From Candidatus Pacearchaeota archaeon (GTDB lineage: Archaea > Nanobdellota > Nanobdellia > Pacearchaeales > GW2011-AR1): a DNA stretch of 64,000 bases. The notes under the pieces were generated by a model, which saw nothing but the letters and a program-made list of their open reading frames with translations, had not been told where the DNA came from and did no database searches. The DNA lies in contig CAXNIJ010000006.1 of the NCBI GenBank assembly GCA_964202455.1, positions 5,184 through 69,183 on the forward strand, written 5' to 3'. The position numbers and the translations under genes are program-made. Numbering within the stretch: position 1 is the first letter of the stretch; every line of letters begins with the position of its first letter. Of the stretch, positions 7,545-28,041 are shown in pieces.

Positions 7545-8960
7545 TTATCCTTTTATAACCGCTAGAGGTTTTAGACGAGCAACTATTTTTCCAATACCTA
7601 AAGCGTCAGATACTCGGACTACTTCATTAACATCTTTATATGCTTCTGGAGCCTCTTCAACTATTCCTTTTCTGCTTCCTGCTTTAATTATTACGTTCTT
7701 TATGGCTAGTTCTTTTTCTATTTGTTCCGGAGTGAAGTTTTTGATGGCGTAAGAGCGAGAAAGAACACGACCTGCTCCATGCGCAGTACTACCTAAAGAA
7801 AGTTCTTCTGCTTTTTTTGTGCCGACTAAAACGAAAGAAAATGTTCCCATACTTCCTGGAATAAATATTGGGCAACCTATTGAACGATAAATTGACGGAA
7901 TTTCTTTTCTTCCTGGACCAAAGGAGCGTGTTGCGCCTTTTCTATGAACACAAAGTGTGCATGTCTTCCCTTCAATTTGGTGTTCTTCGAATTTTGCGAT
8001 ATTATGAGCGATGTCATAAAGCAAATCTACTTTTATTTTTGGAAAGAATTTTGCAAAACTTTTTCTAATTTGATAAGTTATGAGCTGGCGATTAACAAAC
8101 GCAAAATTTGCTGCGGCAGCCATCGCTGCACGATAATCTTTTCCTAAAGGAGAATTGATTGGCGCACATATTAATTCTCTATCTGGAAGATCTTTAAAAC
8201 CATATTGCTTTTCCATTTTTATTATGTAGTCTGATGCGACTTGATGACCCAATCCCCTACTACCTGAGTGAACCATTATTACTATTTGACCCATTTTTAG
8301 ACCGAAAGCTTTCGCTATTTCTTTATCTATAATGCTTTCTACTTCTTGGATTTCTAGAAAATGATTTCCTGAACCTAAACTTCCTAGTTGTGAACGTCCG
8401 CGCGCTTTTGCGCGTGGGCTCACTTTAGAGGCTTCTGCTCCTACAATGCAACCATCATCTTCTATTCTTTTCTGATCTTCTAGAGTAGCATATTTTTTCT
8501 CGACTGCCCAAGCAACTCCTTTCTCTAAGACACGATTTAATTCTTTGTCATCGAATGAGAATTCGCTTTCCTTGCCGACGCCAGATGGAACATCTCGTGC
8601 AATCTGAGAAATTATTTCATTACGTTTAGCAAGAAATTCTTCTCTTTGTAGGGAAGTAATAAGGAGACGGACTCCACAATTTATGTCGTATCCTACGCCC
8701 CCTGGAGAGATAATGCCTTTTTCTAGGTCAAATGCAGCAACGCCTCCAATGGGGAAGCCGTAGCCTTGGTGAGCGTCGGGCATCGCAATTGATTCTCCCA
8801 CAATCCCTTTTAATTGTGCAACGTTTCTAACTTGTTCTAGAGTTTTATTTTCTTTTTGAATATTTTTCATTAAAGTATCTGAAGCAAATATTTTACCCGG
8901 AACTAACATTTTTCCTTCTTTCTCTATTTGCCAGATATTTTCTGCGATCTTCTTGACCAT
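7545..8960 (-). CDS. rtcB: RtcB RNA 3'-phosphate ligase (tRNA splicing ligase)
   Basis: Full-length 471 aa. MPDAHQGYGFPIGGVAA, GGVGYDINCGVR, GSGNHFLE, HSGSRGLGHQV and HGAGR motifs. Confidence 0.95.
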   Translation of the reverse strand: MVKKIAENIWQIEKEGKMLVPGKIFASDTLMKNIQKENKTLEQVRNVAQLKGIVGESIAMPDAHQGYGFPIGGVAAFDLEKGIISPGGVGYDINCGVRLLITSLQREEFLAKRNEIISQIARDVPSGVGKESEFSFDDKELNRVLEKGVAWAVEKKYATLEDQKRIEDDGCIVGAEASKVSPRAKARGRSQLGSLGSGNHFLEIQEVESIIDKEIAKAFGLKMGQIVIMVHSGSRGLGHQVASDYIIKMEKQYGFKDLPDRELICAPINSPLGKDYRAAMAAAANFAFVNRQLITYQIRKSFAKFFPKIKVDLLYDIAHNIAKFEEHQIEGKTCTLCVHRKGATRSFGPGRKEIPSIYRSIGCPIFIPGSMGTFSFVLVGTKKAEELSLGSTAHGAGRVLSRSYAIKNFTPEQIEKELAIKNVIIKAGSRKGIVEEAPEAYKDVNEVVRVSDALGIGKIVARLKPLAVIKG

Positions 8961-9057: not shown

Positions 9058-9471
9058 TTAGACATCTAGCACTACAATCGCTTCCCAACCAGATTTTTTC
9101 TTTACTATTTCCATCTCTGCAAAAGTTGCAGCTTTAATATGTGTGAGATGATAGTTTTTCGTATCATCTCCGAAGACTTCAGCTTTGAGATTATTTCCCC
9201 TTAGGAGAACTGATGCTTTTGCGGGAACAAAATGCTCGGCATCTATGAGATAGAGGAGTTCATCTATGAAATTTGCCAATAATGAATGGGTGTCTGTTCC
9301 TTGAACTTCGATAACTTTCCCTTTTTTGCTTGTAATAGGTGAACCTGAGTTGATGTAATGCGCTACTGCTCTGACAGTATTTTCAAATATTTCATTTAGT
9401 GTTGAACCGTTTATTTGAATTTTTATATCTGCAGTATGGTCGAGGAAATTGAAGGGTAGTTGCTGAGGCAT
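9058..9471 (-). CDS. Archease (RtcB activator)
   Basis: FLDHTADIKIQ N-terminal motif and KAATFAEMEI C-terminal motif. Directly upstream of rtcB on the same strand. I prefer the internal Met (MPQQLPF) because the longer ORF (to 9531) overlaps the divergent gene. Confidence 0.85.
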   Translation of the reverse strand: MPQQLPFNFLDHTADIKIQINGSTLNEIFENTVRAVAHYINSGSPITSKKGKVIEVQGTDTHSLLANFIDELLYLIDAEHFVPAKASVLLRGNNLKAEVFGDDTKNYHLTHIKAATFAEMEIVKKKSGWEAIVVLDV

Positions 9472-9521
9472 GTTGAAATAAAGGAGATTAGCTTTATAAA
9501 TTACCTTATGATGATTAGTTA

Positions 9522-10493
9522 ATGGAGTCAATAGATTTTATTATAATTCTCTTATTTTTTGTAGTATTTGGTTTAGGTATTTTTCTAGTATTTCTTGTTT
9601 TTATTCCAGATACTACTGTTTATGAAGCAAATAAGAATAGTGAGCAAAATTTTAAAGATGAATCGTTAAAATTATCAGAGAGAGTTTTTGGAAGTGTTCA
9701 ACAATTTTATCCCAATATAAGGTTTCCAGAAAAGGAAATAACTTATGCACTTGATCCTGCATGTGATACTAAAAAAGAAGAAAATATTATTACTGCTTTT
9801 TCAATTCTCTCTGCTAAGACAGTTTTAAAATTTATTCCAGAGATGGGGAAGAAAGAACCACGTATTCGCGTTTTATGCTCCGACATTTCTCCTAATTCTG
9901 ATAAGAGAGGGCATTTTGTTGCAGGAGAAGGAGGACCAAGTGAACTAGTAAATGTTAGTGAATACTATGTTATTCTAGAAAGTAAAATCTCGCTTTATCG
10001 AACAGATAGTTGTTCAGAGCCAAAAGTAGCCCTTCATGAAATTTTGCATGCACTAGGATTTAATCATACATCAGATTCACAGAGTATAATGTACCCGATT
10101 AGTTTTTGTAATCAACAACTAGACGAATCTATAATTCAAGAAATTAATCGACTTTATAGCGTTCCATCATATCCCGATTTAACTATTGATTCTGTAAATG
10201 TTAATCGTGTAGGTTCTTATCTTATGTTTCAAATAAATGTGAGTAATGTGGGATTTTATCCAGTTTATGAAGCTAATGTTTCCGTCTATGAAAATGGAAA
10301 ATTCATAAAGAGTTTTAGTCTGACAGATTATCCATTACCGATTGGTTCTACTAAAATTTTAAGTGTGAAAAATTTAAAAGTCAGTAAGGATTCTACTAAT
10401 TTCGAGTTTTTTGTTGAATCTTATAATCCGAGAAGTGAAATCAGAGTAGATAACAATCGTATGGAAGTAGTTTTGGAAAAGAATGTTAAATAA
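9522..10493 (+). CDS. Membrane-anchored metzincin-type zinc metalloprotease
   Basis: N-terminal TM IIILLFFVVFGLGIFLVFLVF. HEILHALGFNH (HExxHxxGxxH) followed by a Met-turn candidate SIMYP. Confidence 0.7.
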   Translation: MESIDFIIILLFFVVFGLGIFLVFLVFIPDTTVYEANKNSEQNFKDESLKLSERVFGSVQQFYPNIRFPEKEITYALDPACDTKKEENIITAFSILSAKTVLKFIPEMGKKEPRIRVLCSDISPNSDKRGHFVAGEGGPSELVNVSEYYVILESKISLYRTDSCSEPKVALHEILHALGFNHTSDSQSIMYPISFCNQQLDESIIQEINRLYSVPSYPDLTIDSVNVNRVGSYLMFQINVSNVGFYPVYEANVSVYENGKFIKSFSLTDYPLPIGSTKILSVKNLKVSKDSTNFEFFVESYNPRSEIRVDNNRMEVVLEKNVK

Positions 10494-13800: not shown

Positions 13801-13861
13801 TCTTCTTTTTGAGATTTAGTTAGAAATTTTATTTTTGAAGCTTAAAAGTTGTCGTAGCAAC

Positions 13862-13870
13862 TTTTAAATA
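13862..13870 (+). promoter_or_regulatory. TATA-box-like element for tRNA-Tyr
   Basis: TTTTAAATA lies 24-32 nt upstream of the tRNA 5' end, the usual archaeal spacing. Confidence 0.4.
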
Positions 13871-13893
13871 CACTTCTTGAGTTTTCTCGTTGT

Positions 13894-14131
13894 CCCCCTA
13901 TAGCTCAACGGTAGAGCACCTGGCTGTAGTCGACATGTGGGGAACTTTGTTCCCTGTGACTAGCGCAGACTTTCCATATCGGAAATCACAAGCACGATAA
14001 AAGAATCGTGCTTGGGACGATCGCGAATTTCTTTAACGGAATTCGCGACGCAGAATGAAGCGTGATCAGATTTTGTTCGTTAGAACAAAGGCAGTACCCG
14101 GGTTACCCCAGTTCAATTCTGGGTGGGGGGA
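13894..14131 (+). tRNA. tRNA-Tyr (GTA) interrupted by a 167-nt intron at the canonical 37/38 position
   Basis: Hand-folded. Acceptor CCCCCTA/TGGGGGG with the C1-G72 pair and A73 (archaeal/eukaryal Tyr identity set). D arm GCTC-AACGGTA-GAGC. Anticodon stem CCTGG/CCGGG, loop CT-GTA-G|...|C. T arm CCCAG-TTCAATT-CTGGG. No encoded CCA; followed by T6. Confidence 0.8.
13930..14096 (+). other. tRNA-Tyr intron with five internal hairpins
   Basis: Central 4-bp helix CTGT/GCAG is flanked by 3-nt bulges AGT and TAC, which is bulge-helix-bulge-like. Internal stems: GGGAAC/GTTCCC, TTTCC/GGAAA, AGCACGAT/ATCGTGCT, TCGCGAATT/AATTCGCGA and TTTGTTC/GAACAAA. Confidence 0.65.
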
Positions 14132-14194
14132 TTTTTTCTTTTACCAATTGCATACCTTTAAATGCCCTCTCTCGTTCTTGAAAATACAAATAAT

Positions 14195-26665: not shown

Positions 26666-28041
26666 TTGGAACAATTTTTAATAATAACATTAAAACAATA
26701 TCTCGTAATTGGAACTATTTTCTTGTTTTAGTTATTTTTCCAATTATTTTAATTTTACTTGCCGGAACAATGCTTAATTCTGCTAATTTAAATAACATAC
26801 GAGTTGGGCTTGTTAATGAAGGAGAAACTGTCTCACTCGATTTTTCTGGAAAAGTTCAAAATATCTTTCCTCATGCGTCTTTAAGTGACTGTCTTTCTAT
26901 GATGGCTGAAGGAGAAAGGATGATTTGTATTAGGGTTTATACTGTGAATGAGCTGCCAATGATGGATGCGTATCTAGATAATACTAAAAAAGTCATGGAA
27001 TCTTATGCTAAACAATTTTTTTTGGAGACTATATTAGATAAACAAAACATTGTATCTGCTGAAGGCGCTGAGAGTTTTAATTCTAAAATTTCAGTTTTCA
27101 CTAGTTCTTTCTCTAGTGCTAGACAAGAACTAGATAAAAGCTATCAAGAACTGGATAATCAAGAGAAAAATTTATTACAATATCAATCTGAAGTAATTGG
27201 GACTCTTGCAGTTATTCCTAATTCTTCAGCTAATACTCTACTTTTGCTTACGAAAATGAACCAAAATTTGAGCGAATCTATTATCAAAACTCAGAAAGGA
27301 AAGCAAAAAATACTAGAATTACAAAATTCCACGGTTAACGGAGAAAAACAGTTAATGTCTATTAAGAATTCTGTAAGAGATAAAGAAATCATTTATAAGA
27401 TTAAATCCGCTTTTGAAAATTCTCCAAAGAGTCCTGTTGCTCTAGCTTTTCCATTACTTATCGCTTTAATTATTACTTTTACTTCGGTAGTCCTATCTAA
27501 TATTTTTGTGTCAAGACAAACTAATCAACCCAATTATATTAGAACTTTGGTTGCTCCTGTAAAAGATTCTTCTTTTCTTTTTGCAGATTATGCAGTTAAT
27601 TTATTTTTTATGAGTATTCAAGCAGTATTTATTCTTCTTGTCGGAATTTACTTTTTTGAGATAGATATTATTTCTAGCCTTCCCCAGATTTTGCTAGTAA
27701 TCTTTCTTTCTTCTTCAATATTCATTTTCATAGGAATGGCTTTTGGATATTTTTTCAAATCGGAAAACCTTTCAATGCTTCTTTCGATATTTATAGTATT
27801 ATTATTCCAAATTTTCTCTGATCTTTTGGCTCCGACTGCACTGGTTGGTCCACTCGTAGGATTTTTTGTCTCAATCAATCCGTTTGTTATCTTGAGTGAA
27901 CTTCTTGGAGAAATTATTCTTCTTCGAAGTCCTTTAAACGTGCTCGTTTCAGAAATTATGAAATTGATTTTGCTCTTCCTTGTAACTTTGGGAATTATGA
28001 TGGTTGCAAAGAAAATGAGTAAGAATAGAACTCTTTATTAG
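26662..28041 (+). CDS. ABC-2 type permease with large extracytoplasmic loop
   Basis: 4-nt overlap with the ATPase gene. N-terminal TM, ~230-aa loop, then five C-terminal TM segments. Confidence 0.75.
   Translation: MIGTIFNNNIKTISRNWNYFLVLVIFPIILILLAGTMLNSANLNNIRVGLVNEGETVSLDFSGKVQNIFPHASLSDCLSMMAEGERMICIRVYTVNELPMMDAYLDNTKKVMESYAKQFFLETILDKQNIVSAEGAESFNSKISVFTSSFSSARQELDKSYQELDNQEKNLLQYQSEVIGTLAVIPNSSANTLLLLTKMNQNLSESIIKTQKGKQKILELQNSTVNGEKQLMSIKNSVRDKEIIYKIKSAFENSPKSPVALAFPLLIALIITFTSVVLSNIFVSRQTNQPNYIRTLVAPVKDSSFLFADYAVNLFFMSIQAVFILLVGIYFFEIDIISSLPQILLVIFLSSSIFIFIGMAFGYFFKSENLSMLLSIFIVLLFQIFSDLLAPTALVGPLVGFFVSINPFVILSELLGEIILLRSPLNVLVSEIMKLILLFLVTLGIMMVAKKMSKNRTLY

Follow-up and report, generated by a model that had tools for sequence, protein, structure and literature searches.

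In the stretch of 64,000 nucleotides analysed here (the window; contig CAXNIJ010000006.1 of a Candidatus Pacearchaeota archaeon, assembly GCA_964202455.1), the tRNA-Tyr(GUA) gene is interrupted by an intron that is an enlarged copy of a conserved, single-copy and structured family of tRNA-Tyr introns. The core of this family has four parts, namely a hairpin named P1, an arm with a kink-turn, adjacent to the splice motif, a 3' hairpin abutting the inner pair of the bulge-helix-bulge (BHB) motif, and the BHB itself. The gene is ordinary in kind, with a BHB intron at position 37/38, and unusual for its deeply conserved kink-turn, for a hairpin masking the splice site and for an enlargement by insertions into loops. 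Taking all the evidence together, we consider it probable that this locus makes a functional tRNA-Tyr(GUA) from a precursor whose intron, a member of the kink-turn family, would serve as an L7Ae-bound scaffold and would have to refold before cleavage.

The gene occupies positions 13894-14131 of the window and is the only one for tRNA-Tyr(GUA) in the genome (0.95 Mb in 12 contigs, 34.4% G+C, 89% complete). Its joined exons amount to 71 nt and are named tRNA-Tyr(gta) by ARAGORN, with C1-G72 and A73. The C1-G72 pair and the A73 discriminator form the identity set of archaeal and eukaryal TyrRS, and the same set is present in all the relatives' tRNA-Tyr genes that were read. An initial annotation, made from the letters of the window, had claimed such a tRNA with an insertion of 167 nt after G37, and both claims hold. 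The 37/38 boundary is fixed by the register of the BHB and by homology to 54 relatives with the same CUGU/RCAG helix. The parts of the gene and of its splice motif are as follows.

13894-13929, forward strand: 5' exon of tRNA-Tyr, C1 to G37, with the anticodon G34-U35-A36 at 13926-13928 (ARAGORN; BLAST to the 5' halves of relatives).
13930-14096, forward strand: intron of 167 nt at position 37/38 (BHB register; homology to 54 family introns).
14097-14131, forward strand: 3' exon of tRNA-Tyr, C38 to A73 (ARAGORN on the joined exons; intron comparison).
13924-13930, forward strand: 5' side of the BHB, C32UGU35 (13924-13927) followed by the bulge A36, G37 and U (13928-13930), with the cut after 13929.
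14090-14097, forward strand: 3' side of the BHB, G14090, then GCAG (14091-14094) and the bulge U, A and C38 (14095-14097), with the cut after 14096.

The motif has the core of the hBHBh' form, with two 3-nt bulges (AGU and UAC) around a 4-bp central helix, cuts at 37/38 and the anticodon stem as outer helix. The central helix of the core that the initial annotation had outlined (CTGT/GCAG flanked by AGT and TAC) is shared by the 54 relatives, across which CUGU/RCAG is 99% paired. The inner helix, described there as poor, is weak indeed and consists in the window of a single C-G pair (13931:14090). Across the family this pair, i2:i(n-6), is CG in 23 sequences, UA in 16, AU in 2, GC in 1 and UG in 1, remaining unpaired in 3, and its covariation score was reached by none of 500 shuffles. 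The second position of the inner helix, a G-A in the window, is paired in 13 of the 28 sequences with letters there.

The relationship of the intron to those of other genomes was established by BLAST of the gene against 60 relatives, which found both exon halves and two intron blocks in genus-mates, whose tRNA-Tyr genes are only about 150-180 nt long. Among the extracted genes the tRNA-Tyr intron measures 47-110 nt throughout the order, with one intron-less exception, L012. The public records of intron-bearing homologues are labelled Woesearchaeota, Pacearchaeota or Nanoarchaeota, among the matches listed; a pattern scan across public contigs was too loose, returning mostly chance bacterial matches, and served for names and a few archaeal examples. 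Read from 5' to 3', the family core begins with a hairpin closed by C-U, an A, a 4-nt strand, R-G-A and a UUCC/GGAA hairpin, and continues with R-A-U-G-A-A, the complementary 4-nt strand, G-A-N-N-A-G, a variable hairpin and R-C-A-G followed by two bases. A covariance model, R1, was built from a MAFFT alignment of 13 sequences in which 95.6% of the cells pair, compared with 85% after shuffling and 31-47% with the partners slid. R1 matches 228 of the 401 genomes of the order, in 105 of its 153 genera, at one site per genome and at two in a single genome; at the level of the class, no matches fall outside the same family and a single neighbouring one. The window intron matches the model from end to end (54.6 bits, E = 7e-11, model positions 1-98), and the match covers P1, the kink-turn arm, the hairpin hp2 and the BHB. 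When the 54 distinct sequences are aligned to R1, 95.9% of the cells are paired (82.1% shuffled, 33-46% with partners slid) and 14 pairs show changes on both sides, a score equalled by 0 of 500 shuffles. The earlier suspicion that the intron does not merely act as a spacer is supported by a core that is conserved and covarying in more than 100 genera.

As computed here, the window intron folds into five hairpins, with stems of 7, 5, 10, 11(+2) and 7 bp, and its folding z-score against shuffled sequence is -5.2 (-6.2 for the whole gene). Five strong hairpins had been predicted and are confirmed, although not with the stem range of 5-9 bp then given; in the same way the intron is richer in G+C than its surroundings, moderately so and not much more, at 44.9% against 30-37% in the flanks (34.4% in the genome, 60.6% in the exons). 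The hairpins and the arm that carries three of them lie at the following positions.

13939-13955, forward strand: hp1, a hairpin inserted in the P1 loop (model alignment).
13971-14052, forward strand: distal (C-helix) arm of the kink-turn, hp2 followed by hp3 and hp4 (model alignment, relatives).
13971-13985, forward strand: hp2, the conserved and covarying hairpin UUCC/GGAA (54-sequence alignment).
13989-14014, forward strand: hp3, an inserted hairpin specific to the window (absent from all relatives aligned).
14018-14050, forward strand: hp4, an inserted hairpin specific to the window (absent from all relatives aligned).
14072-14089, forward strand: hp5, a 7-bp hairpin whose 3' strand runs into G14090 and the BHB central helix (fold).

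The 54 distinct family introns have a median length of 82 nt, and 52 of them fall between 57 and 111 nt, the longer ones being those of the window (167 nt) and of one genus-mate (172 nt). The length of the window intron is explained by hairpins inserted in two apical loops, hp1 in the loop of P1 and hp3 with hp4 after hp2; insertions unrelated to these occupy the same two places in the intron of the genus-mate. In a whole-genome search no other copy of hp1, hp3 or hp4 and no match longer than 13-17 nt was found, and these three hairpins appear to be recent additions specific to the lineage. The length and the five-hairpin look, which the initial annotation had stressed, are not what is conserved, hp1, hp3 and hp4 being absent from relatives; the conserved parts are P1, the kink-turn with hp2, and hp5. 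Relatives also have a hairpin at the place of hp5, with differing sequences. The 3' strand of hp5 runs straight into G14090 and the central helix, from which we infer that hp5 probably prolongs the BHB inner helix by stacking. Rfam contains no family matching the intron, either for the window at the gathering threshold, for the gene alone at E up to 10, or at eight related loci.

Next to the splice motif lies the element that characterises the family, and its two strands are these.

13962-13970, forward strand: non-bulged strand of the kink-turn, reading A, GCGC (NC-side helix), A (3n), G-A and C (-1n).
14053-14069, forward strand: bulged strand of the kink-turn, reading G (-1b), the AAU bulge, G-A, A (3b), GCGU and the tail GA-UC-AG.

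A kink-turn is recognised by a bulge of 3 nt that follows a Watson-Crick helix and precedes tandem G-A pairs and a helix starting with A-G or A-A. As judged from its sequence, the intron core carries this signature, and its G-A pairs are presumably sheared. All 54 sequences have both G-A dinucleotides and, in front of the second, a U. The bulge reads R-A-U, with A at L2 in 53 of 54; position 3b is A in 51 of 54 and 3n is G or A. The closing pair -1n:-1b is CG in 26, UA in 22 and GC in 6 of the sequences and is never unpaired. All four pairs of the NC helix covary, as in GCGC/GCGU, GUGC/GCAC, GCAU/AUGC and GGGU/ACCU. In the tail that follows, G is found in 46, A in 51, then A in 50 and G in 53 of the 54. 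The genome encodes L7Ae (C4:31901-32146; Pfam). The element resembles Kt-7 and the L7Ae-binding kink-turns of archaeal RNase P RNA (PMC4245976, PMC5499556), which are stand-alone structural elements with A-G or A-A at 3b-3n, in an RNA related to processing and with no link to modification; what sets the present kink-turn apart is its place beside a splice site, in an intron that can be removed from the tRNA.

The remaining conserved element, P1, involves the exon.

13928-13961, forward strand: P1 hairpin, A36-G37-U-C-G (13928-13932) paired with U-G-A-C-U (13957-13961) (covariation, fold).

In P1, the partner of A36 is always U and that of G37 nearly always C, while the pair of intron base 1 varies among UA (20), AU (11), CG (10) and GC (5) and that of intron base 2 between CG (26) and UA (17). 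Since A36, G37 and the first intron bases are all paired, the 5' cut site lies inside a helix. Intron base 2, its P1 partner and its BHB partner change together (C/G/G in 23 sequences, U/A/A in 15, A/U/U in 2 and G/C/C in 1), and its two pairings are mutually exclusive. Covariation of one base with two exclusive partners implies a refolding step before cleavage. Nearest-neighbour folding cannot score a kink-turn and penalises it by about 5 kcal/mol, so that energies were used only to compare P1 with the BHB. In the unconstrained minimum-energy fold of the anticodon arm with the intron, P1 is formed and stacks upon the CUGU/GCAG helix, and forcing the BHB fold in the window sequence places it about 4 kcal/mol higher. 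A pairing of the freed 3' strand of P1 with tail positions +3/+4 was also considered and was not supported.

Several observations weigh against this picture. The formal kink-turn pattern (two GA, a helix of at least 4 bp and a closing pair) occurs in 29% of random 167-nt pieces of the genome, and in 3.7% of them if L2-L3 = AU is required; chance matches being so frequent, the case for the kink-turn is made wholly by conservation and covariation. The alignment of 54 sequences was fitted to R1 and favours its structure, and the independent MAFFT alignment of 13 sequences shows the same picture. In the window the inserted hairpins leave the C helix only two pairs (C-G and U-A) before a multi-branch junction, so its kink-turn may be weaker than those of the relatives. 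Moreover, a genome of the same family has an intron-less tRNA-Tyr(GUA) gene, L012 (G027:C34), which means that the kink-turn intron is not indispensable and that at least one loss of it has occurred.

The mechanism that appears most likely to us is a folding and positioning scaffold, bound by L7Ae, with refolding before cleavage; the binding of L7Ae, the order of events and their regulatory meaning are what we infer from the sequences. According to known pathways, the tRNA-Tyr gene would be transcribed on its own. The kink-turn would then bind L7Ae, making the intron a rigid, self-contained domain that would prevent misfolding between the long insert and the body of the tRNA and would set the geometry beside the splice site. 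P1 and the BHB would compete for A36, G37 and intron bases 1 and 2, and as a consequence of this competition the precursor would rest with its 5' splice site masked and would have to refold, or be refolded by a protein, before it is cut by EndA. Such a step may provide a time window or a checkpoint ahead of splicing. Again by known pathways, the precursor would be cut at the BHB, in its canonical position, by an alpha-type EndA and the exons would be joined by RtcB with archease.

The components expected for these last steps are encoded in the genome. EndA is present in a single copy of 170 aa (C9:10912-11169), with N- and C-terminal domains, and is a single-unit alpha-type enzyme; a DPANN-specific L3 loop of EndA has been described (PMC5829648). 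RtcB and archease are encoded 4.4-6.3 kb upstream of tRNA-Tyr, as the initial annotation had reported, and are recognised by their Pfam matches.

7545-8960, reverse strand: gene of the tRNA-splicing ligase RtcB (Pfam PF01139, E = 3.8e-165).
9058-9531, reverse strand: gene of archease, the cofactor of RtcB (Pfam PF01951, E = 4.7e-33).

The intron resembles a canonical archaeal 37/38 BHB intron in its position, in its 3-nt bulges, in its 4-bp central helix, in the use of the anticodon stem as outer helix and in the presence of EndA, RtcB and archease in the same genome. It differs in that the inner helix is reduced to one covarying pair, probably stacked on a separate hairpin, and in that the bases of the 5' bulge are alternatively locked in the conserved hairpin P1. 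As a separate observation, this lone alpha-type EndA coexists with many long introns, some of them perhaps relaxed in form.

A guide function has to be weighed against the scaffold, since introns of archaeal tRNA-Trp and tRNA-Met are known to contain box C/D RNAs (PMC3491384) and the initial annotation had drawn an analogy with C/D guides. The box C/D sRNA in the euryarchaeal pre-tRNA-Trp intron (Haloferax, Pyrococcus) and the Nanoarchaeum equitans tRNA-Met intron RNA (PMC3491384) have, like the present intron, an L7Ae-type kink-turn in a 37/38 intron and an intron-exon pairing that competes with the splice motif; here, however, the tRNA is a different one, there is one kink-turn and no guide stretch, an internal helix occupies the place of the guide, and the genus is devoid of fibrillarin. 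Indeed fibrillarin (PF01269) is absent from the genome itself and from all 17 genomes of the genus, and was found above the cut-off in 5 of 61 relatives. A box C/D methylation guide was rejected because there is no fibrillarin and no guide, the box pair being single and the would-be guide strand being an internal covarying helix, and with it the analogy is abandoned. The core might still be a relic, that is, an ancestral intron-borne guide left idle by the loss of fibrillarin and kept only for folding of the intron in splicing. Its strands R-A-U-G-A-A-G-C and C-R-G-A resemble C' and D' boxes, box-like strands recur in the neighbouring families f3 and f5 (GAUGAU/UUGA and AAUGAG/CUGA), and those few relatives still have fibrillarin. 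Nevertheless the second box pair and any 10-12-nt guide upstream of the D box are missing, and the G-A pairs are invariant in 54 of 54 sequences with flanking helices that covary in lineages devoid of fibrillarin, which denotes purifying selection and not decay; a relic is therefore very unlikely in our judgement. The strong structure of the intron (z = -5.2, five hairpins), the circularisation of introns by RtcB in other archaea, according to work cited in PMC3491384, and the stable intron-derived RNAs known in other archaea could also speak for an excised, probably circularised intron acting in trans as a stable RNA, with the extra hairpins as part of its function. We regard this as improbable: the invariant C-U before the kink-turn pairs with A36 and G37 of the exon, which a free intron lacks, and a conserved hairpin made with exon bases suggests that the intron acts within the precursor and not as a free stable RNA. 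In addition, this genome alone has three of the five hairpins, the 172-nt intron of the genus-mate has unrelated insertions, and no Rfam family matches.

Pseudouridylation of the anticodon provides the other group of explanations. Known guides that direct pseudouridine 35 in trans bind pre-tRNA-Tyr by pairing to both its anticodon stem-loop and its intron (PMC2651775), and in archaeal H/ACA RNAs, by a rule quoted in PMC2651775, the kink-turn is joined to the pocket by a helix 2 of 5 or 6 bp. The intron could form, with its kink-turn, the tail CAG on C32-G34 and P1, an H/ACA-like three-way junction in which U35 is left unpaired and is converted to pseudouridine in its own tRNA before splicing by Cbf5-Nop10-L7Ae, or with help from Pus7. 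The likeness to Sso1 and related guides (PMC2651775) lies in the target region, the anticodon and intron of tRNA-Tyr, with pairing to the same two regions of the precursor; in the kink-turn 5-6 bp from the junction, here one A-R layer and 4 bp, that is, five stacked layers between the G-A pairs and the junction; and in the enzymes, L7Ae, a Cbf5-like TruB enzyme and Nop10 being encoded despite the loss of fibrillarin, with Nop10 in 51 of 61 relatives. Pus7 (TruD) is missing in 55 of the 61 relatives that keep the intron, and elsewhere, in lineages outside this family, the tail is complementary to nt 27-34 over 6-8 nt, the tRNA bases there being invariant. On the other hand, such an RNA would differ from known guides by acting in cis, by having no lower stem and by its weak 3'-side pairing, and an ACA box at a distance of 14 nt from the pocket was found in none of the copies examined, which excludes a canonical H/ACA guide. 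The RCAG near the 3' end starts with A or G and is required by the BHB, helix 2 is separated from the pairing stretches by unpaired guide bases (GA-N, A), and the complementarity of the tail beyond A-G in this family is 57.7% against 58.4% in shuffles, so that the tail was likewise discarded as a fixed-register antisense to nt 27-34. The Cbf5-like protein has no match to the PUA domain in Pfam, and the genome of the window has its own Pus7, as have five genus-mates (6 of 17 in the genus, and 0 of 40 other genera sampled). Such a cis-acting pocket is, in our estimation, improbable. We see a slim chance, little as it is, for a wider version, a ribonucleoprotein (RNP) device acting in cis, in which the L7Ae-bound kink-turn, P1 and the docked tail would hold the anticodon pocket with U35 exposed for an intron-dependent modification; this could be pseudouridine 35 made by Cbf5-Nop10 or by Pus7, or another change in the anticodon loop, after which the switch from P1 to the BHB would admit EndA. 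If this were true, the intron would provide a built-in checkpoint of modification before splicing, and the dependence of eukaryotic tRNA-Tyr on its intron would have a parallel in archaea. It may be added as an observation on these genomes (G000-G060) that the content of modification genes is patchy, fibrillarin being nearly lost across the order and Nop10 and the Cbf5-like protein being kept.

The L7Ae-bound scaffold with refolding also draws support from tRNA-Tyr introns outside the family, in which the kink-turn occurs independently. In a second archaeal order, reached via L078 (loci L190-L218), the tRNA-Tyr intron is compact, of about 50 nt, and has the same kink-turn, with a 6-bp helix in which all six pairs covary, followed by a conserved CAGCYG, the complement of nt 29-34. 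In the canonical BHB register at these loci, U33 always stands opposite U or C. A record labelled Thermofilales has a similar intron layout. L078 (CAZAIK010000007.1) is itself labelled 'uncultured Methanosarcinales archaeon', and its tRNA-Tyr gene with the intron aligns over the full length, at 72% identity, to a record labelled Nanoarchaeia; this identity, and an order composed of genomes of 0.6-2.7 Mb, make the label doubtful. In a limited full-text search of the literature, kink-turns or C/D RNAs came up for the introns of tRNA-Trp and tRNA-Met, and nothing for those of tRNA-Tyr.

In eukaryotes the intron of tRNA-Tyr is the most widely conserved tRNA intron. It resembles the introns described here in being in the same tRNA and at the same position, in pairing with the anticodon and in its long-term conservation, suggestive of a role before splicing; it differs in being short and in having no kink-turn, and we claim no relationship in sequence. 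The eukaryotic intron is needed for pseudouridine 35 and m1A58 (PMC12168002; PMC2651775 for pseudouridine 35).

Finally, some features of the gene and of the genome bear on its detection. Two flanking elements are likely to serve its expression. CTTTTAAATA is likely its archaeal promoter, placed by position alone, a bacterial-type promoter scan being uninformative for this region, and TTTTTTCTTTT is a likely transcription stop as read from the sequence.

13861-13870, forward strand: TATA-like A/T-rich box, CTTTTAAATA, centred about 28 nt before C1 (position alone).
14132-14142, forward strand: T-run, TTTTTTCTTTT, immediately 3' of A73 (read from the sequence).

The tRNA-Tyr gene escaped both ARAGORN run with default settings and Rfam at the gathering threshold, which in the window reported tRNA-His and tRNA-Lys alone. 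With introns allowed, ARAGORN placed a gene at 13893-14132 and named it Thr(tgt), with an intron of 147 nt and a false long variable arm. Two further candidates obtained from ARAGORN at low threshold (1451-1721 and 26803-27125) have poor stems and were judged false positives, and a second 'Tyr' on contig C7 has G1-C72 and the anticodon loop UUUGUAA and is for these reasons Thr(UGU). According to ARAGORN, six other tRNA genes of the genome carry inserts of 48-146 nt, several of them mis-named:

C2:34280-34413: anticodon loop CUUAAGA, hence Leu(UAA) and not Ser as named by ARAGORN.
C3:96555-96747: long variable arm and loop CUUGAGA, hence Ser(UGA) and not Thr as named by ARAGORN.
C4:51368-51588: insert-bearing tRNA gene.
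C5:1967-2155: insert-bearing tRNA gene.
C5:24707-24911: insert-bearing tRNA gene.
C5:103241-103397: insert-bearing tRNA gene.

The top of hp5, UUCGUUAGAA (window 14072-14089), recurs in the intron of tRNA-Leu(UAA) at C2:34328-34339 with 12 of 12 bases identical, and a similar hairpin top, CUUCGUUAGAAG, is found in the intron of C5:103241-103397. This recurrence may reflect a tetraloop hairpin preferred by the introns of this genome, or chance.

That standard tRNA finders miss or mis-name an essential tRNA-Tyr gene is a practical warning, as DPANN genomes can for this reason seem to be without tRNA-Tyr. The window copy shows in addition a route by which an intron can grow, through insertions in apical loops that are tolerated by the core. 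Across more than 100 genera from which the methylation machinery has disappeared, a kink-turn and a masking hairpin are kept under clear purifying selection, and the tRNA-Tyr intron thereby offers a natural case of two folds competing at a BHB site and a testable example of an archaeal intron that would have a job inside its own precursor.

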